9,313 nucleotides of DNA. It comes from a virus. Lineage: Duplodnaviria > Heunggongvirae > Uroviricota > Caudoviricetes. The position numbers and the translations under genes were made by a program. Each line of letters opens with the position of its first letter. Positions within the stretch are counted from its first letter, which is position 1. This document shows positions 1-9,313 of the stretch, in pieces. Under the pieces are notes generated by a model, which worked only from the letters and a program-made list of their open reading frames with translations, made no database searches and was not told the DNA's origin. The stretch is taken from IMG/VR virus record IMGVR_UViG_2526164634_000020, positions 1-9,313 of that record; one strand, written 5' to 3'.

Positions 1-1514
1 AACGATATTATTCCGGCCGACCACTGCCTGCATGATGTGCAGGATATGAGTACGCTGAATCATCCGAAGGCAGACCTGAGCAAAGGGCAGTACGGCTGTG
101 TCGGCCAGGGCTTACATATTGCCAAAAAACTGCTCCCGTATATCCCGAATAACGCGGGGATCCTGCTGGTACCATGCTGTCGTGGTGGTTCGGCATTCAC
201 CCAGGGCGCGGAGGGGGACATTCAGTGCGGACACGGGGGCCAGCCAGGATTCGGCACGCTGGGGGGTGGGTAAACCGTTATATCAGGACCTGATTGCGCG
301 CACTAAAGCTGCATTACAGAAGAACCCGAAAAATGTGTTGCTGGCGGTGTGCTGGATGCAGGGAGAGTTTGACATGAGCGCCGCCACCTACGCACAGCAA
401 CCTGCGCTGTTTACAGCCATGCTGAAGCAGTTTCGTGCTGACCTCACTGTGTTTAACGCGCAGTGTCATGGTGGCAGTGCTGTAAATGTGCCGTGGATTT
501 GTGGTGACACGACGTATTACTGGAAAAATACATACGCTACCCAGTACGACACCGTGTACGGCGGGTATAAAAACAGGGAGAGTGAGGGCGTTTATTTTGT
601 GCCCTTCATGACAGACGGTAACGGCGTCAATACCGCCACTAACGCACCGGCAGAAGATCCGGATATTCCGGCATCAGGATATTACGGTGCGGCATCGAGA
701 ACGAATGGAAACCAGGTATCATCAAACCGCCCGACACATTTCAGTTCATGGGCGCGCAGGAGCATTATTCCGGATCGTATGGCAACCGCTATTCTGAACG
801 CAGCCGGGCGCACCTCAGCTTTCATCAGTGGTAAGGCACCGGAAATCAAACCCTCGCCCGGCGTCGACACGCCATCGGGGCCGTCTGAAGATGCATCCGT
901 ACGCACAATCTCCCTGTTGCCGACAGCCGGAGAGGCTGCTGCGCAGGGCTGGACCATTAAGGACGGCGGAATTCAGTTGTCGGGTGGTGTATTTAAGATC
1001 GCCAAGCAGAGCAATAAAACCTGGTCCCTGATGCATCCGGTGGATGACGCAGTCTCCCTGCTGACACGGGGTGGCAGACTGAGCTGTAAGTTTCGACTGT
1101 CAGGCGCACTGACCAACAACCAGTTCGGCCTGGGAATTTATCTGTATACCGATGTAGCGTTACCTGACGTCGTGGCGATGACCGGGACTGGTAACCCGTT
1201 CCTGATGTCGTTCTTCACCCCAGACCACAGACGGCAAACTGAATCTGATGCATCACAAGAAAGCAGGAAACACAAAGTTGGGCGAGTTCGGGAATTACAG
1301 TAATGACTGGCAGACGCTGGAACTGGTGTTCACCGCCGGCAGTGCCACGGTTACTCCGAAACTGAATGGAGTGGCTGGCCCGGCATTCCAGGTCATAAAA
1401 GACAGTCTGACACTGGGGCTGAATGCGCTGACGCTGACGGATATTACCAAAAATGCAGCGTATGGCGTTGAGATAGAAAGTCTGGTGCTGGAGATAAATG
1501 CACCGGCAGCATAA
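1..1514 (+). pseudogene. nanS: Prophage sialate O-acetylesterase, NanS-p-like (SASA/DUF303 family), 5'-partial at window edge, two apparent +1 frameshifts
   Basis: Frame 1 from the window edge reads ...HCLHDVQDM...GQGLHIAKKLLPYIPNNAGILLVPCCRGGSAFTQGAEG; frame 2 continues ...TGASQDSARWGVGKPLYQDLIARTKAALQKNPKNVLLAVCWMQGEFD...PWICGDTTYYWK...TNAPAEDPDIPASGYYG...; I recognise these motifs from E. coli NanS and prophage NanS-p esterases. Frame switches at the G5 run 213-217 and again at the C4 run 1218-1221; the C-terminal part runs in frame 3 to the stop at 1512-1514. ORF-track entries 37..273, 98..1303 and 1248..1514 are pieces of this one gene. Confidence 0.6.
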
Positions 1515-1521
1515 TAAAAAA

Positions 1522-1551
1522 AGCCAGCGCCCACTCTGAAGGACGCTGGCT
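1522..1551 (-). terminator. Hairpin with flanking A/T run, candidate intrinsic terminator (better formed for minus-strand transcription)
   Basis: GCCAGCG (1523-1529) pairs with CGCTGGC (1544-1550), loop about 14 nt; A7 at 1515-1521 becomes a U-run after the stem only on the minus strand; plus-strand side is followed by TAAAAC. Confidence 0.3.
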
Positions 1552-1725
1552 AAAACGGGTAGATGTACTTCACATGATACTTATACTTGGCAGTACATTT
1601 TCTGACAGACAGTGACGGATGATGTCAAGATATTGTGTCATTTATAACCTGAATCAGGGGTGGCCGGAATGTTATCTGGCATTTTTAGCAGAGCCTGAAT
1701 GCCATAATCACGGCTCCCGGCGTTG

Positions 1726-1765
1726 GCCGTCAGTGGGTGACACTGGCGGCTTTTTTGTTTTTCTT
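1726..1765 (+). terminator. Strong rho-independent terminator upstream of the holin gene (tR-prime-like)
   Basis: 10-bp stem GCCGTCAGTG / CACTGGCGGC (one G-U pair), 5-nt loop GGTGA, then TTTTTTGTTTTT; sits 40 bp upstream of S. Confidence 0.55.
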
Positions 1766-1806
1766 TACTTTCATTTTCTGTCGGCGGTGACGGAGACATA
1801 CATCAG

Positions 1807-2013
1807 ATGGAAAAAATCACAACAGGTGTGTCATACACCACGTCAGCGGTGGGGACGGGATACTGGTTACTGCAGCTGCTGGACAAAGTCTCTCCGTCCC
1901 AGTGGGTGGCAATAGGTGTGCTGGGGAGTCTGCTGTTTGGCCTGCTGACGTATCTGACAAACCTTTATTTCAAGATTAAAGAAGATAAGCGTAAGGCTGC
2001 GAGAGGTGAATAA
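1807..2013 (+). CDS. S: Class II holin, phage-21 S-type pinholin (68 aa)
   Basis: [68 protein letters not shown]; two TMDs plus charged C-tail; near-colinear with my recollection of phage 21 S21; stop overlaps the R start (TAATG). Confidence 0.8.
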
Positions 2014-2510
2014 TGTCGCCGTCATTACGCAAGGCTGTTGCTGCTGCTATTGGTGGTGGGGCTGTTGCCATAGCGTCTGTGCTCATCACTGGTCCGAGTG
2101 GTGACGATGGCCTGGAAGGTGTCAGCTACATACCATACGAAGATATCGTTGGCGTATGGACTGTATGTCACGGACACACCGGAAAAGACATCATGCCCGG
2201 TAAAACGTATACCGAAGCAGAATGCAAAGCCCTCCTGAATAAAGACCTTGCCACGGTCGCCAGACAAATAAACCCGTACATCAACGTCGATATACCGGAA
2301 ACAACGCGCGGCGCTCTTTACTCGTTCGTTTACAACGTGGGCGCTGGCAATTTCAGAACATCGACGCTTCTTCGCAAAATAAACCAGGGCGATATCAAAG
2401 GCGCATGTGATCAGCTACGGCGCTGGACATACGCTGGCGGTAAGCAATGGAAAGGGCTGATGACTCGCCGTGAGATTGAGCGTGAAGTCTGTTTGTGGGG
2501 GCAACAATGA
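2013..2510 (+). CDS. R: SAR endolysin, phage-21 R-type lysozyme (165 aa)
   Basis: N-terminal Gly/Ala-rich signal-anchor-release segment [30 protein letters not shown] followed by lysozyme core [21 protein letters not shown]...; immediately follows the pinholin, typical pinholin/SAR-endolysin pairing. Confidence 0.9.
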
Positions 2511-2944
2511 GCAGAGTAACCGCGATTATCTACGTTCTGGTCATCTGCCTCATCGTCTGCCTTTCATGGGCTGTTAATCATTACCGTGATAACGCCATCG
2601 CCTACAAAGAGCAGCGCGATAAAGCCACATCCATCATCGCTGATATGCAGAAGCGGCAACGTGATGTAGCAGAACTTGACGCCAGATACACAAAGGAGCT
2701 TGCTGATGCTAATGCGACTATCGAAAGTCTCCGTGCTGATGTTTCTGCTGGGCGTAAGCGCCTGCAAGTCGCCGCCACCTGTGCAAAGTCAACGACCGGA
2801 GCCAGCGGCATGGGCAATGGAGAAACCCCAGGACTTACAGCAGATGCTGAACTCAATTATTACCGTCTCCGAAGTGGAATCGACAGGATAACCGCGCAGG
2901 TTAACTACTTGCAGGAGTACATTAGGACGCAATGCCTTCGATGA
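2507..2944 (+). CDS. Rz: Rz i-spanin (inner-membrane spanin subunit)
   Basis: ATGA start/stop overlap with R; [34 protein letters not shown]... N-terminal TMD plus coiled-coil periplasmic region, closely lambda-Rz-like. The ORF-track start at 2495 is GTG; ATG 2507 is the more likely start. Confidence 0.85.
2706..2891 (+). CDS. Rz1: Rz1 o-spanin lipoprotein, embedded in the +1 frame of Rz
   Basis: AAGGAG at 2693-2698 about 7 nt before ATG 2706; [20 protein letters not shown] with lipobox VSAC, then proline-rich [13 protein letters not shown] as in lambda Rz1; lies entirely inside Rz. Confidence 0.75.
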
Positions 2945-3016
2945 TAGCGATAATTTTCCCATTATCTTTCATATGCGTGATTTTAGTTAGTTTTAGTCGC
3001 AACACGAATAAAACAG

Positions 3017-3043
3017 AGAACCACCCGCTATACGAGTGGTTCT
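3017..3043. terminator. Bidirectional intrinsic terminator between convergent Rz and the minus-strand small ORF
   Basis: 8-bp stem AGAACCAC / GTGGTTCT with 11-nt loop; T-rich on both sides (plus: GATTTACACTTTTG; minus: CTGTTTTATTCG). Confidence 0.4.
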
Positions 3044-3060
3044 GATTTACACTTTTGAAA

Positions 3061-3291
3061 CTAAAAGCTAAATACTTGAGCAAGAACAGCTAGCGCTGCG
3101 CAAAAAGCAGCCCGTTTATTCCATTTACTTTGTATTTCAATGGCTTTAAAACAACCCAGTGATGAGAAACTGCCTTGTTCCGTTTTTGGTGGGTGTTCTT
3201 TGGAAGATGCAAAACATGAAATAATCCAAAAAATGGCGGAAAAAATTCCAAAAATTATTGAAGGCAAATGATGCTCTTTCAAAAACTCCAT
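3061..3291 (-). CDS. Hypothetical small membrane or lipoprotein-like protein (76 aa), AT-rich accessory gene
   Basis: MEFLKEHHLPSIIFGIFSAIFWIISCFASS...; hydrophobic N-terminal segment ending in a lipobox-like IISC; convergent with Rz and followed on its own strand by the 3017-3043 terminator. No family recognised. Several T homopolymers make the frame fragile. Confidence 0.35.
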   Translation of the reverse strand: MEFLKEHHLPSIIFGIFSAIFWIISCFASSKEHPPKTEQGSFSSLGCFKAIEIQSKWNKRAAFCAALAVLAQVFSF

Positions 3292-3903
3292 GACTTAACT
3301 CTCTTAAAAGTTGCTAAACATCGCTCGCAAACAAGAAAGAAAAGTTCTGTTGCGGGCACTCCACAATTTAAACGCCACACAAGCAGCTATTAGGTGGACG
3401 GTTCCAAGATTGCTATCAACTGCCACCCGAATACCGTCAAAACTTGACGTCCAACCAAGAATTATTGAGTTGTAAACTCAACGCAATGATCTGGTTGGTA
3501 TAAATGTGACATATGTCATGAATCGACTAGTTGAGATAGTCAAGATGGGCTTGCTTGACATCATCACCACAACCGGAGCCAACAATGGCAGATTGCGTTA
3601 CCCAGATTTGATAAAGGCATTTTAGCCTGACATAACTATGCACTGTATCGTCGCCGTATTCCCGCATCAACAGAGACCACAGCCCGAGAGGGAGACTCCT
3701 CTGCGCGAGTGTGCGGGGATAATCAAAAACGATACACACCGGGGTTTACCGTGTTAACGGAGCGCGGCGTTGTCCCCTCATGGTCGCTGGTCCGGTGCGA
3801 TGGTGGAAGAAACCGGACGATGTGTTACCTCGCAAGCTCTGTTATGTCATGTGTCTGATTTGTGATTTAAGTCGGATAATTGTCATTGCCATTAAGCAGA
3901 GGA

Positions 3904-3934
3904 TTGATGACCGACAGGGCTGCATTGTTAGAAT
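3904..3934 (+). promoter_or_regulatory. Candidate sigma70 promoter for the TonB_C lipoprotein gene
   Basis: TTGATG (3904-3909), about 19-bp spacer, TAGAAT (3929-3934), roughly 30 nt upstream of ATG 3967; pattern match only. Confidence 0.2.
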
Positions 3935-3966
3935 AAGACTTATTCTTATCTATGCCGGGAATAAAA

Positions 3967-4293
3967 ATGAAAAGAAATCTTCCGTTAATTATTTTGTTGT
4001 CTTCTTTGGTTATGGGCTGTACGCAACATAAAACAGATATGCCTCGACAGTTGGTTAAGGCATTACCACAATATCCGGCCTATGCCGCGGCAAATTATAT
4101 AAAGGGACGGGTTGATGTGAAGTTTGATATTGGTGCTGATGGTACTGTCACCCGAATTGAGTTTATCCGTTCAGAGCCGCACCATCTGTTTGATGAGCAG
4201 GTTGTAAAGGCGATGGCAAAATGGCGATTTGAGAAGGACAAGCCGCGTAAAGGCGTGAAGAAAACATTTATCTTTAGTCCTTCAGCACCCTGA
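3967..4293 (+). CDS. Outer-membrane lipoprotein carrying a stand-alone TonB C-terminal domain (about 108 aa)
   Basis: Signal peptide MKRNLPLIILLSSLVMGC with lipobox and +2 Thr; mature part LPQYPAYAAANYIKGRVDVKFDIGADGTVTRIEFIRSEPHHLFDEQVVKAMAKWRFEKDKP aligns motif for motif with the E. coli TonB C-terminal domain (QYPA..A....G.V.VKFD...DG.V......S.P...F...V..AM..WR.E..KP). The ORF-track start 3952 lacks an RBS; 3967 is preferred. Confidence 0.7.
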   Translation: MKRNLPLIILLSSLVMGCTQHKTDMPRQLVKALPQYPAYAAANYIKGRVDVKFDIGADGTVTRIEFIRSEPHHLFDEQVVKAMAKWRFEKDKPRKGVKKTFIFSPSAP

Positions 4294-4484
4294 TTATTTT
4301 ATCAGAAGTTAATTATCACTCTGTTGCTATTCAGTACATCCCTGCAGGGTAAAGTCTTGTTTCGCCGGATATGAAGATGAAATATTGTTAGAAGACAGTA
4401 GCTACCGGTTCCTGTAACCGAACGTTCATTTCTCGTTATTTTTCATGCTGGCCGGGCGCAGGTGCTTTGCACTGAGAGATCCCC

Positions 4485-5693
4485 TCATAATTTCCCCAAA
4501 GCGTAACCATGTGTGAATAAATTTTGAGCTAGTAGGGTTGCAGCCACGAGTAAGTCTTCCCTTGTTATTGTGTAGCCAGAATGCCGCAAAACTTCCATGC
4601 CTAAGCGAACTGTTGAGAGTACGTTTCGATTTCTGACTGTGTTAGCCTGGAAGTGCTTGTCCCAACCTTGTTTCTGAGCATGAACGCCCGCAAGCCAACA
4701 TGTTAGTTGAAGCATCAGGGCGATTAGCAGCATGATATCAAAACGCTCTGAGCTGCTCGTTCGGCTATGGCGTAGGCCTAGTCCGTAGGCAGGACTTTTC
4801 AAGTCTCGGAAGGTTTCTTCAATCTGCATTCGCTTCGAATAGATATTAACAAGTTGTTTGGGTGTTCGAATTTCAACAGGTAAGTTAGTTGCTAGAACCC
4901 ATGGCTCCTTTGCCGACGCTGAGTAGATTTTAGGTGACGGGTGGTGACAATGAGTCCGTGTCGAGCGCTGATTTTTTCGGCCTTTAGAGCGAGATTTATA
5001 CAATAGAATTTGGCATGAGATTGGATTGCTTTTAGTCAGCCTCTTATAGCCTAAAGTCTTTGAGTGACTAGATGACATATCATGTAAGTTGCTGATAGGT
5101 TTCCAGTTTTCCGCTCCTAGGTCTGCATATTGTACTTTTCCTCTTACTCGACTTAACCAGTACCAACCCAGCTTCTCAACGGATTTATACCATGGCACTT
5201 TAAAGCCAGCATCACTGACAATGAGCGGTGTGGTGTTACTCGGTAGAATGCTCGCAAGGTCGGCTAGAAATTGGTCATGAGCTTTCTTTGAACATTGCTC
5301 TGAAAGCGGGAACGCTTTCTCATAAAGAGTAACAGAACGACCGTGTAGTGCGACTGAAGCTCGCAATACCATAAGTCGTTTTTGCTCACGAATATCAGAC
5401 CAGTCAACAAGTACAATGGGCATCGTATTGCCCGAACAGATAAAGCTAGCATGCCAACGGTATACAGCGAGTCGCTCTTTGTGGAGGTGACGATTACCTA
5501 ACAATCGGTCGATTCGTTTGATGTTATGTTTTGTTCTCGCTTTGGTTGGCAGGTTACGGCCAAGTTCGGTAAGAGTGAGAGTTTTACAGTCAAGTAATGC
5601 GTGGCAAGCCAACGTTAAGCTGTTGAGTCGTTTTAAGTGTAATTCGGGGCAGAATTGGTAAAGAGAGTCGTGTAAAATATCGAGTTCGCACAT
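4485..5693 (-). CDS. tnp: IS10 transposase (402 aa), apparently intact
   Basis: MCELDILHDSLYQFCPELHLKRLNSLTLACHALLDCKTLTLTELGRNLPTKARTKHNIKRIDRLLGNRHL... matches the Tn10/IS10 transposase over its full length. Confidence 0.95.
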   Translation of the reverse strand: MCELDILHDSLYQFCPELHLKRLNSLTLACHALLDCKTLTLTELGRNLPTKARTKHNIKRIDRLLGNRHLHKERLAVYRWHASFICSGNTMPIVLVDWSDIREQKRLMVLRASVALHGRSVTLYEKAFPLSEQCSKKAHDQFLADLASILPSNTTPLIVSDAGFKVPWYKSVEKLGWYWLSRVRGKVQYADLGAENWKPISNLHDMSSSHSKTLGYKRLTKSNPISCQILLYKSRSKGRKNQRSTRTHCHHPSPKIYSASAKEPWVLATNLPVEIRTPKQLVNIYSKRMQIEETFRDLKSPAYGLGLRHSRTSSSERFDIMLLIALMLQLTCWLAGVHAQKQGWDKHFQANTVRNRNVLSTVRLGMEVLRHSGYTITREDLLVAATLLAQNLFTHGYALGKL

Positions 5694-5754
5694 CTTGTTG
5701 TCTGATTATTGATTTTTCGCGAAACCATTTGATCATATGACAAGATGTGTATCC
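5686..5754 (+). ncRNA. IS10 RNA-OUT antisense RNA (region retained in the truncated IS10)
   Basis: Position inferred from remembered IS10 coordinates (pOUT near nt 115 directed toward the outside end); the region contains the long imperfect inverted repeat ACATCTTGTTGTC...GACAAGATGT that forms the RNA-OUT stem. Boundaries approximate. Confidence 0.35.
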
Positions 5755-5844
5755 ACCTTAACGTAAGCGTACAGCCTGAACCGTCTGGTCAGAATCTGAC
5801 GAATTAGACAAAGTGGTGTCCACCAAATAAGTAGTGGGAACCAA

Positions 5845-5873
5845 TGAGGTAGCCTGAGTTTAACGGACACTCC
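5845..5873 (+). repeat. Left terminal inverted repeat of the IS3-family element
   Basis: See element entry; hand alignment, imperfect. Confidence 0.4.
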
Positions 5874-5908
5874 TTCCTGAAATAGAATGGCATCAGAAGG
5901 AGCTAATA

Positions 5909-7048
5909 ATGAGCAGAAAAACCCAACGTTACTCTAAAGAGTTCAAAGCCGAAGCTGTCAGAACGGTTCTTGAAAATCAACTTTCGATCAGTGAAGGTGC
6001 TTCCCGATTATCTCTTCCTGAAGGCACTTTAGGACAATGGGTTACCGCCGCCAGAAAAGGGCTCGGTACTCCTGGTTCCCGCACGGTGGCTGAACTGGAA
6101 TCTGAAATTCTGCAACTGCGTAAGGCGTTAAATGAAGCTCGCCTTGAGCGAGATATATTAAATTGCACAGGAGTCGCTGAAAAATACGCGTTAATCGAAC
6201 AATGGCGACAACAATTTCCCATTGAAGCGATGTGTCAGGTATTTGGTGTATCCAGGAGCGGTTATTACAACTGGGTACAGCATGAACCCTCAGACAGAAA
6301 ACAAAGTGATGAGCGGCTAAAACTGGAGATTAAGGTGGCGCATATCCGCACTCGCGAAACATATGGAACCCGGCAGCTCCAGACGGAGCTGGCAGAGAAT
6401 GGCATCATCGTTGGTCGTGACCGACTGGCACGTCTTCGTAAGGAGCTAAGGCTACGCTGTAAGCAGAAACGCAAGTTCAGAGCGACTACGAACTCGAACC
6501 ACAATCTGCCAGTTGCGCCAAATCTGCTGAACCAGACGTTCGCTCCTACAGCACCAAATCAGGTCTGGGTGGCGGACCTGACGTATGTTGCCACACAGGA
6601 GGGATGGTTGTACCTCGCTGGCATCAAAGATGTTTATACGTGCGAAATTGTCGGCTACGCCATGGGAGAGCGCATGACAAAAGAGCTGACAGGTAAAGCC
6701 CTGTTTATGGCGCTCAGGAGCCAGCGCCCACCTGCCGGGCTAATCCACCACTCTGATCGAGGTTCACAGTACTGCGCATACGATTACCGTGTCATACAGG
6801 AGCAGTTTGGTCTGAAAACATCAATGTCGCGTAAAGGTAACTGTTACGACAACGCTCCGATGGAAAGCTTCTGGGGAACGCTGAAAAATGAGAGCCTGAG
6901 CCACTATCGTTTTAATAACCGGGATGAAGCCATCTCAGTAATACGGGAATACATTGAGATTTTCTACAATCGTCAGCGTCGTCACTCTCGTCTGGGGAAT
7001 ATCTCCCCGGCAGCCTTCAGGGAAAAATACCATCAGATGGCTGCTTAA
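5909..7048 (+). CDS. IS3-family transposase, single fused OrfAB-type ORF (379 aa)
   Basis: AAGGAG RBS 7 nt before the ATG; N-terminal HTH (MSRKTQRYSKEFKAEAVRTV...) and leucine zipper (ELESEILQLRKALNEARLERDIL) typical of IS3 OrfA, joined in frame to an rve/DDE core (VWVADLTYV, HHSDRGSQYCA, NAPMESFWGTLKNE, NRQRRHSRLGNISP). Confidence 0.9.
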   Translation: MSRKTQRYSKEFKAEAVRTVLENQLSISEGASRLSLPEGTLGQWVTAARKGLGTPGSRTVAELESEILQLRKALNEARLERDILNCTGVAEKYALIEQWRQQFPIEAMCQVFGVSRSGYYNWVQHEPSDRKQSDERLKLEIKVAHIRTRETYGTRQLQTELAENGIIVGRDRLARLRKELRLRCKQKRKFRATTNSNHNLPVAPNLLNQTFAPTAPNQVWVADLTYVATQEGWLYLAGIKDVYTCEIVGYAMGERMTKELTGKALFMALRSQRPPAGLIHHSDRGSQYCAYDYRVIQEQFGLKTSMSRKGNCYDNAPMESFWGTLKNESLSHYRFNNRDEAISVIREYIEIFYNRQRRHSRLGNISPAAFREKYHQMAA

Positions 7049-7061
7049 AAAAAGAACAAAT

Positions 7062-7091
7062 GGTAGTGTCCGCTATTGCCAGTACACCTCA
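7062..7091 (+). repeat. Right terminal inverted repeat of the IS3-family element
   Basis: See element entry; hand alignment, imperfect. Confidence 0.4.
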
Positions 7092-7202
7092 ACATTCCAC
7101 CATGCATTCCGATTAACGCCGCATAGCCAGTTGGACTTTGCTACTTTGTGAGAGGTAGTACCTTCTATCCAGTGCGAATCTAATTAATGGAATAAATGAT
7201 TT

Positions 7203-9199
7203 ATGAGTGAAAATGATACAATCCCAAAGAAGTCTACAAGTCAGATTAACAAAGCGGTATTCTTTACATCTGCTTTGCTAATTTTCCTTCTTGTCGCCTT
7301 TGCCGCCGTATTCCCGGATGTCGCCGACAAAATTTTAAACTACTTCAGCAACAAATCTTCACGAATGCCAGCTGGTTCTACATCCTTGCTGTGGCCCTGA
7401 TTTTACTGAGTGTCACGTTCCTTGGACTCTCACGCTACGGTGATATCAAGCTGGGCCCGGACCATGCGCAGCCTGATTTCGGCCACCACTCCTGGTTTGC
7501 GATGCTTTTTTCGGCAGGGATGGGGATCGGCCTGATGTTCTTTGGCGTTGCCGAACCTGTAATGCATTATCTTTCGCCACCCGTTGGCACTCCAGAAACC
7601 GTTGCGGCAGCTAAGGAAGCAATGCGTCTGACCTTTTTCCACTGGGGACTGCACGCATGGGCAATTTATGCCATTGTGGCGCTGATTCTGGCGTTCTTCA
7701 GTTACCGTCACGGTCTGCCTTTAACTCTGCGCTCCGCACTCTATCCCATTATTGGCGATCGCATATACGGACCTGTAGGACATGCGGTTGATATTTTCGC
7801 TGTTATAGGCACGGTCTTTGGCGTTGCGACATCACTGGGTTACGGTGTTTTGCAGGTGAATGCCGGTTTGAACCATCTTTTCGGGGTGCCCATCAATGAA
7901 ACGGTGCAGGTAATTCTGATCGTGGTCATCACGGGGTTAGCGACGATTTCAGTGGTGTCCGGTCTGGATAAGGGAATACGTATCCTGTCTGAACTCAATC
8001 TGGGTCTGGCTTTGTTGCTCCTGGCGCTGGTCCTGTGTCTGGGACCAACCGTGCTTCTGCTGAAGTCATTTGTGGAAAATACGGGCGGTTATCTTTCGGA
8101 ACTGGTGAGTAAAACGTTCAACCTTTACGCGTATGAGCCCAAGTCGAGCAACTGGCTGGGGGGCTGGACATTACTGTACTGGGGATGGTGGCTTTCATGG
8201 TCGCCGTTTGTGGGGATGTTCATCGCACGGGTCTCCCGCGGGCGAACCATTCGCGAGTTTGTCACCGGCGTGCTGTTTGTTCCCGCGGGTTTTACGCTAA
8301 TGTGGATGACGGTGTTTGGTAACAGCGCGATCTATCTCATTATGAACCAGGGGGCCACAGACCTCGCCAATACTGTTCAGCAGGATGTGGCGCTGGCCCT
8401 GTTTAATTTCCTGGAGCATTTCCCGTTCTCTTCTGTGCTGTCATTCATTGCAATGGCGATGGTCATCGTCTTCTTTGTAACGTCTGCTGATTCGGGGGCA
8501 ATGGTTGTGGATACTCTGGCATCAGGTGGAGTGGCAAACACACCCGTCTGGCAGCGAATATTCTGGGCCTCGCTCATGGGCATTGTTGCAATTGCGCTTC
8601 TCCTTGCCGGAGGGCTAAGTGCGCTGCAAACGGTGACAATAGCGAGTGCATTGCCCTTCTCAGTGATCTTACTAATATCTATATACGGACTTTTAAAAGC
8701 TTTGCGCCGGGATTTGACCAAGCGTGAAAGCCTGAGCATGGCGACAATTGCTCCTACGGCTGCACGTAACCCAATTCCTTGGCAGAGAAGGTTACGCAAT
8801 ATCGCGTATCTGCCGAAGCGATCTCTTGTGAAACGTTTTATGGACGACGTTATCCAGCCCGCCATGACGCTGGTTCAGGAGGAACTGAACAAGCAGGGGA
8901 CGATAAGCCACATTAGTGATGCAGTCGACGATCGTATTCGTCTTGAAGTCGATTTGGGCAACGAGCTGAATTTTATATATGAAGTGAGGCTTCGCGGGTA
9001 TATCTCACCGACCTTCGCGCTCGCCGCAATGGATAATGATGAGCAGCAGACTGAACAACATCGATATTATCGCGCTGAGGTTTATCTCAAAGAAGGCGGT
9101 CAAAATTATGATGTGATGGGCTGGAACCAGGAACAGCTGATTAATGACATACTGGACCAGTACGAAAAACACCTGCACTTCCTGCACCTGGTTCGTTAA
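7203..9199 (+). CDS. BCCT-family transporter, BetT-like choline/betaine transporter, with apparent -1 frameshift near the 5' end (possible pseudogene)
   Basis: BCCT signature WTLLYWGWWLSWSPFVGMFIARVSRGRTIREF; C-terminal cytoplasmic tail resembles BetT. The N-terminus (7203-7355, frame 3: MSENDTIPKK...ADKILNYFSNK) continues as IFTNASWFYILAVALILL... in frame 2; the shift lies at the A3 run 7353-7355. ORF-track entries 7203..7400 and 7391..9199 are one gene. Confidence 0.8.
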
Positions 9200-9261
9200 T
9201 AGCAACATGCCGTCCTGGGGGCGGCAATTATTATCCCGGCCGCAATATGGGGGAATGCAGA

Positions 9262-9313
9262 ATGATTTCACGCTGGAAATGGATGCTGAAGCAGACAATT
9301 AAAAAACTATGGT
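9262..9313 (+). CDS. Possible 5' end of a downstream gene (partial, unknown product)
   Basis: ATG 9262 with G-rich SD-like GGGGGAA about 7 nt upstream; frame open to the window end (MISRWKWMLKQTIKKLW...). Too short to classify. Confidence 0.2.
   Translation, partial: MISRWKWMLKQTIKKLW

Follow-up and report, generated by a model that had tools for sequence, protein, structure and literature searches.

Is an IS3-family transposase gene that is open from end to end the mark of an element that works without programmed frameshifting, or of one that has lost it? The question is raised by an open reading frame at positions 5909–7048 of the DNA analysed here, a stretch of 9313 nucleotides corresponding to positions 1–9313 of IMG/VR virus record IMGVR_UViG_2526164634_000020 (hereafter the window). 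An earlier reading made from the sequence alone, the sequence-only reading, described this frame as a constitutively fused IS3-family transposase gene and implied that the element is naturally free of programmed frameshifting. The description stands in nearly all its parts. The implication does not, and we set out below what the element is, how its two frames were joined, where the fused allele is found and what has probably become of it.

IS600 identity and the lost frameshift cassette

On alignment, the segment at 5845–7091 (+ strand) is a copy of IS600, an element of the IS3 family first described in Shigella sonnei. It is 1247 bp long, compared with 1264 bp for the canonical element. Global alignment with the IS600 copy of S. 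sonnei 53G (L002:301–1564), named 'IS3-like element IS600 family transposase' in RefSeq, gives five substitutions and one gap of 17 bp. Of the 1247 aligned bases, 1242 are identical (99.6 per cent outside the gap), which is above the isoform level of about 95 per cent, the name IS600 being based here on copies named by RefSeq/PGAP. Only one of the substitutions changes an amino acid (R156Q); the other four are synonymous. A megablast search with 5845–7091 found matches in 5721 E. coli records, and in thousands of E. coli and Shigella records overall; the matches of 1264 bp carry the name 'IS3-like element IS600 family transposase', and those of 1247–1248 bp are called 'IS3 family transposase' only.

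The left terminal inverted repeat (IRL, TGAGGTAGCCTGAGTTTAACGGACACT) lies at 5845–5871 (+) and the right one (IRR, ...AGTACACCTCA) at 7065–7091 (+). They form a pair (I1) of 27 nt that is imperfect and 70 per cent complementary, of the form TGAGG...CCTCA, with the 5'-TG...CA-3' ends of the IS3 family. IRL has no substitution relative to canonical IS600, IRR is the same as in canonical IS600, and there is likewise no change ahead of the ATG, in the start codon or at the catalytic residues D223, D283 and E319. Canonical copies (e.g. NC_016833.1, 159572–160835) therefore share with the window copy the inverted repeats, the promoter-proximal region, the start codon, residues 1–84 of OrfA, the DDE triad and, except for R156Q, the residues of the OrfB frame.

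The fused orfA–orfB frame runs from ATG to stop at 5909–7048 (+) and encodes 379 amino acids, as indicated by the open reading frame scan, Pfam and NCBIfam. The protein is identical in sequence to the product of RefSeq CDS WP_000088351.1, annotated as 'IS3 family transposase', and the nucleotide CDS in the comparison sequence L001 differs from that of the window by one synonymous change. Pfam places HTH_Tnp_1 at residues 3–75, HTH_21 at 134–190 and rve/rve_3/rve_2 at 214–373 (rve match, 5.9e-26), all in the single frame, and the score with the NCBIfam model NF033516, 'IS3 family transposase', is 399 bits, where 160 is the cut-off. These matches bear out both the family assignment made from the sequence and the statement that OrfA-like and DDE parts lie in one uninterrupted frame.

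The OrfA-derived part (5909–6162, +) extends to L84, and its residues 1–84 are those of canonical OrfA. It comprises HTH_Tnp_1 and a leucine-zipper-like helix, as in the IS3 family, with heptad hydrophobic positions read from the sequence as L63, I67, L70, L74, A77 and L84; the last turn of the zipper (V90/F91 of canonical OrfAB) is deleted. The OrfB-derived part (6163–7048, +) holds HTH_21 and the DDE/rve core. The catalytic residues of the family, D223, D283 and E319, are found there in the motifs VADLTY, HSDRGS and PMESFW, and R156Q is the only amino-acid change from the canonical sequence in this part.

Canonical IS600 is organized differently at the boundary between the two parts. Its orfA continues in frame 0 through ...ATA TTA AAA AAA GCA... 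and the 100-residue protein ends in ...DILKKATAYFAQESLKNTR*, whereas a −1 slip on the heptamer A AAA AAA G reconstructs an OrfAB of 385 amino acids that contains ...DILKKSNSVFCTGVAEKY... Six nucleotides past the heptamer, beyond the spacer GCAACA, a 9-bp hairpin (GCGUAUUUU/AAAAUACGC) is predicted. Its minimum free energy in RNA folding is −14 kcal/mol (z = −1.6, which is not statistically strong alone), and it is plausible as a stimulator of frameshifting.

The alignment places the 17-bp deletion of the window copy between 6162 and 6163, and the bases lost are nt 319–335 of canonical IS600, AAAAGCAACAGCGTATT. Four of the seven A's in the slippery run are gone with them, as is the spacer, and the hairpin has lost seven bases from its 5' arm. 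The heptamer A AAA AAA G is absent from the window element, and on folding of the window sequence the hairpin no longer formed. Because 17 is of the form 3n + 2, orfB is now in frame with orfA, which is the equivalent of a permanent −1 shift. The deletion point is spanned by the codon AAT (Asn85) at 6161–6163 (+). The fused protein is six residues shorter than the reconstructed canonical OrfAB, in agreement with the earlier remark that the linker looked a few residues short: DILKKSNSVFCTG has become DILNCTG, with KKSNSVF replaced by N. At the junction the window protein reads ...DILNCTGVAEKY..., and the comparison with OrfAB sets ...ERDILKKSNSVFCTGVAEKY... against ...ERDILNCTGVAEKY...

The former end of OrfA can still be read out of frame. 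Its C-terminal tail, AQESLKNTR*, lies at 6165–6194 (+), now in the +1 frame, with the former OrfA stop at 6192–6194; judged by its sequence, this remnant is a direct footprint of a two-ORF ancestor. Stops around the junction fall at 6129, 6159 and 6192 in the +1 frame and at 6121, 6133, 6145, 6178 and 6223 in the +2 frame, so both alternative frames are closed there, as had been reported. The sequence-only reading had also proposed that the usual control of the OrfA:OrfAB ratio is removed. Loss of the slippery site and the shift of the OrfA stop out of frame make this control impossible. With this coding layout, no separate OrfA can be made from the window element, and its only possible product is the predicted 379-residue OrfAB-like fusion. 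The lack of the two-ORF, −1 frameshift arrangement of the IS3 family is, on the alignment, a secondary loss by the 17-bp deletion.

Locus and distribution of the fused allele

A 47-mer across the deletion junction, which cannot seed on canonical IS600 copies, is present in 461 of 5426 complete E. coli genomes (about 8 per cent). The places number 469, and the median genome has a single one. A shorter probe for this junction, a 34-mer, matched 33 metagenome contigs; it had no match in a scan of one genome per species, a result that is uninformative on age beyond E. coli. The exact 379-residue protein is indexed in 3383 assembly blocks. Carriers have one to five IS600-like places per record, and for many of them the fused copy is the sole IS600-like place.

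The surroundings of the fused frame are strikingly uniform. All 10 distinct protein neighbourhoods returned place it just upstream of a BCCT transporter/DUF2254/TetR (acuR) region. Its left neighbours, among these neighbourhoods, are usually lpxM (msbB2) and virK; in one of them (L010) the annotation has no call for either lpxM or the BCCT gene. In the window, the left flank consists of the 82 bp (5763–5844, +) that follow msbB2/lpxM in other strains. It is cut on its left side by a truncated IS10, and the identity of the window with L001 begins exactly at 5763. Elsewhere, on plasmids of some 90 kb and on other chromosomes, these 82 bp are found with no IS600 beside them. The right flank (7092–7202, +) leads to the BCCT transporter gene, and the junction between IRR and this flank is the conserved anchor of the IS600 copy: an 80-bp sequence covering IRR and the BCCT flank is found in 1495 of the 5426 complete E. 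coli genomes. The junction of the msbB2 flank with IRL is found in 489 complete E. coli genomes.

When the 17 bp were restored in the query, 29 further genomes were found with IS600 at exactly the same site, including IAI39, CE10 and NCTC86. Alleles of this type keep the slippery heptamer and have just a 3-bp deletion at nt 327–329. As the sum of 461 and 29 is close to 489, essentially every 17-bp-deleted copy in complete genomes is at one site.

The IS600 alleles of BL21, IAI39, CE10 and NCTC86, which share the anchor, have a right junction identical to that of the window copy, and in IAI39 and NCTC86 the msbB2 left junction is identical as well. All four keep the slippery heptamer and two ORFs, whereas the window copy does not. 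In BL21 the IRR/BCCT junction belongs to a full-length IS600 of 1264 bp, annotated with 'programmed frameshift', that has a cluster of four substitutions at nt 328–332 and a different left flank (fec/ISEc52). Because alleles at the same site have an intact slippery site, the fusion is a derived mutation that arose in situ. The sequence-only reading had itself allowed that canonical two-ORF copies elsewhere would make this copy a mutant, and BL21, IAI39 and NCTC86 carry them at this very site.

The window IS600 lacks a 3-bp target duplication, since the triplet before it is CAA and the one after it ACA. Other IS600 copies have such duplications, CTG in L002 and ACC in L003, and the window copy differs from the canonical element in lacking both a duplication and evidence of mobility. 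An empty site, with the left and right flanks joined without the IS, was found in none of the complete genomes searched, so that a comparison of the locus before and after insertion is impossible. The missing duplication and the origin of the flanks from different sequence blocks point to a later rearrangement at the IS and not to a different family.

A chromosomal shf–capU–virK–msbB2 locus has been described for the enteroaggregative strain EAEC 042 (PMC2808357), and this strain carries the 17-bp-deleted allele (H167). As its flanks are read here, IS600 sits at the right edge of the chromosomal shf–capU–virK–msbB2 island, at a mosaic boundary. Taken together, the comparisons of junctions and flanks show an old IS600 insertion upstream of the BCCT gene, which later became a recombination boundary with the shf–capU–virK–msbB2 module.

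A second fusion of the two frames was found on the EIEC plasmid pINV CP119444. This IS600 allele (L003) has independently lost 14 bp (also 3n + 2), beginning at the same A-run, and encodes a 380-residue fusion. It differs from the window allele in its end points (KSNSV lost) and in having the ACC duplication. A search for spread of this 14-bp allele returned one record only. Independent changes are clustered in the frameshift cassette of IS600 (nt 316–340; 20 bp): the 17-bp and 14-bp deletions, the 3-bp spacer deletion of 29 genomes (L015/L016, IAI39 and NCTC86) and the four-substitution cluster of BL21 (L051). An unannotated IS600 copy of about 1251 bp (H36, NZ_CP065612.1) is also altered in the cassette. 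This clustering suggests either a mutational hot spot, formed by the A-run and the hairpin, or selection to disable frameshifting in resident copies.

Activity and fate of the fused allele

In the IS3 family, the level of frameshifting sets the level of transposition, and the pausing associated with frameshifting favours action in cis (PMC5009743). OrfAB of IS911 has the layout HTH-LZ-M-DDE; its frames have been fused by engineered 1-bp insertion with the protein unchanged, and such clean fusions yield OrfAB alone (PMC2909936). Engineered fused-frame versions of IS911, IS2 and IS3, obtained by a single-base insertion in the slippery run, have no frameshift control and make no OrfA (PMC2909936). 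OrfAB is able by itself to form the bridged figure-eight intermediate (PMC1636345). The naive expectation from the work on fused frames and figure-eights would be a hyperactive element, and the data presented here point the other way. We found no sign of hyperactivity of the constitutive fusion, which is single-copy and in apparent neutral decay. The engineered fusions and the window allele are alike in having only the fusion protein and no OrfA. However, the OrfAB sequence is unchanged and active in the engineered fusions, whereas the window allele has lost six residues and gives no sign of activity.

The junction-sampled alleles from metagenome contigs vary at 21 nonsynonymous and 10 synonymous sites, which gives a crude dN/dS of 0.64. 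The changes are mostly transitions, and the observed N:S ratio of 2.1 compares with 1.93 in the neutral, transition-only expectation. About one in six of the ORFs sampled (5 of some 30) is disrupted, with premature stops in L020, L023, L036, L042 and L047. One further allele (L022) has the changes H281Q and D283H, the second of which removes the second catalytic Asp. The fused-ORF alleles vary about neutrally; some constraint on the fused ORF may nevertheless exist.

We consider it probable (about 0.85) that the element as a whole is an immobile, slowly decaying IS600 relic, fused by a 17-bp deletion at an inherited site upstream of the BCCT gene. Canonical IS600 makes OrfA (100 amino acids) in frame 0 and OrfAB (385 amino acids) by a −1 slip on A AAA AAA G. 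A single 17-bp deletion, in one lineage and in situ in the msbB2/BCCT configuration, fused orfB permanently to orfA, leaving neither free OrfA nor frameshift control. We infer that the fused element transposes hardly or not at all and is slowly decaying. By analogy with IS911, the inactivity might come from the loss of K85–F91, which would end the multimerisation region of the zipper and includes V90/F91 at heptad positions; in part of the published work on IS911, the leucine zipper is reportedly essential for multimerisation. Alternatively, the loss of the frameshift-linked pause that favours action in cis could be responsible, or expression may simply be too low.

Several observations count against a relic. 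The ORF is intact in most of the sampled alleles. The inverted repeats, the upstream region, the start codon and D223/D283/E319 are all canonical, and to this extent inactivity is unproven by sequence. The 469 places in 461 genomes leave eight second places, which lie outside the inspected contexts. An active element would be expected at several sites with target duplications of its own; all of the inspected contexts are the same.

The alternative that survives best, although we regard it as improbable, is that the fused allele encodes an active, constitutively expressed and possibly hyperactive transposase that mobilises itself or other IS600 copies. The open ORF and the intact inverted repeats and catalytic residues agree with this, as do the independent in-frame fusion of pINV CP119444, with its ACC duplication, and metagenome contigs in which the deleted form has new flanks. 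In 7 of the 33 junction-bearing contigs (L017, L020, L026, L033, L034, L035 and L045), an intact IRL is joined to flanks other than the msbB2/BCCT pair, one or both flanks being different, and in L026 a 3-bp duplication, AAC, surrounds the deleted form. However, at the L026 site the complete genome N32 has a canonical IS600 of 1264 bp, and the internal substitutions of L026 agree with another IS600 lineage. The left flank of L034 is the BL21-type flank, which belongs to a canonical copy. For these reasons, and because of the junction counts in complete genomes, the contigs were rejected as proof of transposition. They are more likely to be chimeras due to the collapse of repeats in short-read assembly, or IS–IS recombinants; real transposition, formally admissible, is the less likely source. 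In complete genomes the fused allele occupies 469 places in 461 genomes, the 489 msbB2/IRL junctions are fully covered by the 461 deleted and 29 restored-query alleles, and in many carriers there is no other IS600-like place, all of which argues against an active transposase. So do the singleton status of the 14-bp variant and the six residues that are deleted here in addition to the fusion, unlike in the engineered constructs.

Less likely again is that the deletion gave rise to an OrfAB-like protein that is stable, translated constitutively, still able to bind IS600 ends and retained as useful. Such a protein might supply transposase in trans to the cell's other IS600 copies or, conversely, damp their transposition in a dominant-negative way; it could also drive or regulate the BCCT–DUF2254–acuR genes, which lie downstream in the same orientation. 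If true, this would be a natural example of the loss of frameshifting turning a transposase into a host-level factor. We give slightly less credit still to outright domestication, in which the fused protein would be kept by selection at the locus, for example as a DNA-binding regulator or as a driver of the BCCT operon. The fused frame does occupy the same position and orientation upstream of the BCCT gene in hundreds of genomes, and thousands of assemblies carry the major allele in intact form (3383 index blocks). Inheritance of the island nevertheless accounts for this wide occurrence, and the preponderance of nonsynonymous sites (21 against 10), the disruption of about one sampled ORF in six, the frameshift in the downstream BCCT gene of the window and the unfused alleles at the same site in sister strains all speak against selection for such a role.

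The case implied by the sequence-only reading, a separate IS3-family element whose transposase gene is by nature a single ORF, has next to no probability left. The uninterrupted ORF and the stops in both other frames gave it its appeal, and it was refuted by the alignment with IS600 and by the same-locus alleles that keep the slippery site: canonical copies use A AAA AAA G, identity is 99.6 per cent outside the one gap, which covers the frameshift cassette exactly, and at 6165–6194 the OrfA tail and its stop remain out of frame. An error of sequencing or assembly in the A-rich run is the least credible reading of all and is likewise refuted, as had been argued for a single-base artefact at a slippery site. 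A7 homopolymers are error-prone and odd-length singletons do occur in plasmid records (H35, H36), but 17 bp and not 1–2 bp are lost, and the complete genomes in which the identical junction recurs, 461 in all, were assembled independently; it recurs in 33 metagenome contigs as well.

We rate the fused IS600 relic as already known in kind, being a mutant allele of a known IS; the literature search returned no description of a natural IS600 fusion allele, or of IS600 with msbB2/virK. For annotation, the lesson is that a long single ORF called 'IS3 family transposase' should not be taken as frameshift-independent until it has been aligned with the closest IS. The fused allele is also a convenient lineage marker, present in 461 of the 1495 genomes with the IS600/BCCT anchor. 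As a natural mutant without slippery site, hairpin or OrfA, and with a six-residue loss at the end of the zipper, it could be used to probe the roles of the cassette and of the last zipper turn in IS600 activity.

Other features of the window

None of the complete E. coli genomes in the collection matches the window as a whole. To the left of the IS600 flank there is a copy of IS10/ISVsa5 (4472–5762, − strand) with an intact transposase ORF of 402 amino acids (4485–5693). Its inside end (CTGAGAGATCCCC...) is present at 4472, and the outer 38 bp, including the outside-end inverted repeat, are missing. The element ends in ...CCACCTTAAC and meets, at 5763, the sequence that follows msbB2; prophage DNA lies on its other side. 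From this abutment it follows that msbB2/lpxM, virK and the rest are deleted in the window genome.

To the right, the BCCT-family transporter gene (7203–9199) is split into parts of 65 and 602 amino acids because an A5 run at about 7328 has lost one A. In other strains (L001) the gene is whole and encodes 665 amino acids, and the split gene is either a pseudogene or the product of a homopolymer sequencing error.

The left part of the window (98–1303, 1807–2944 and 3952–4293) is DNA of a lambdoid prophage late region. It contains an ORF with a SASA domain (sialate O-acetylesterase-like), truncated or degenerate in appearance, followed by a P21-type holin S, lysozyme R and Rz, and then by a small protein that has a TonB_C domain and, at its N terminus, a lipoprotein-like motif (LVMGC).
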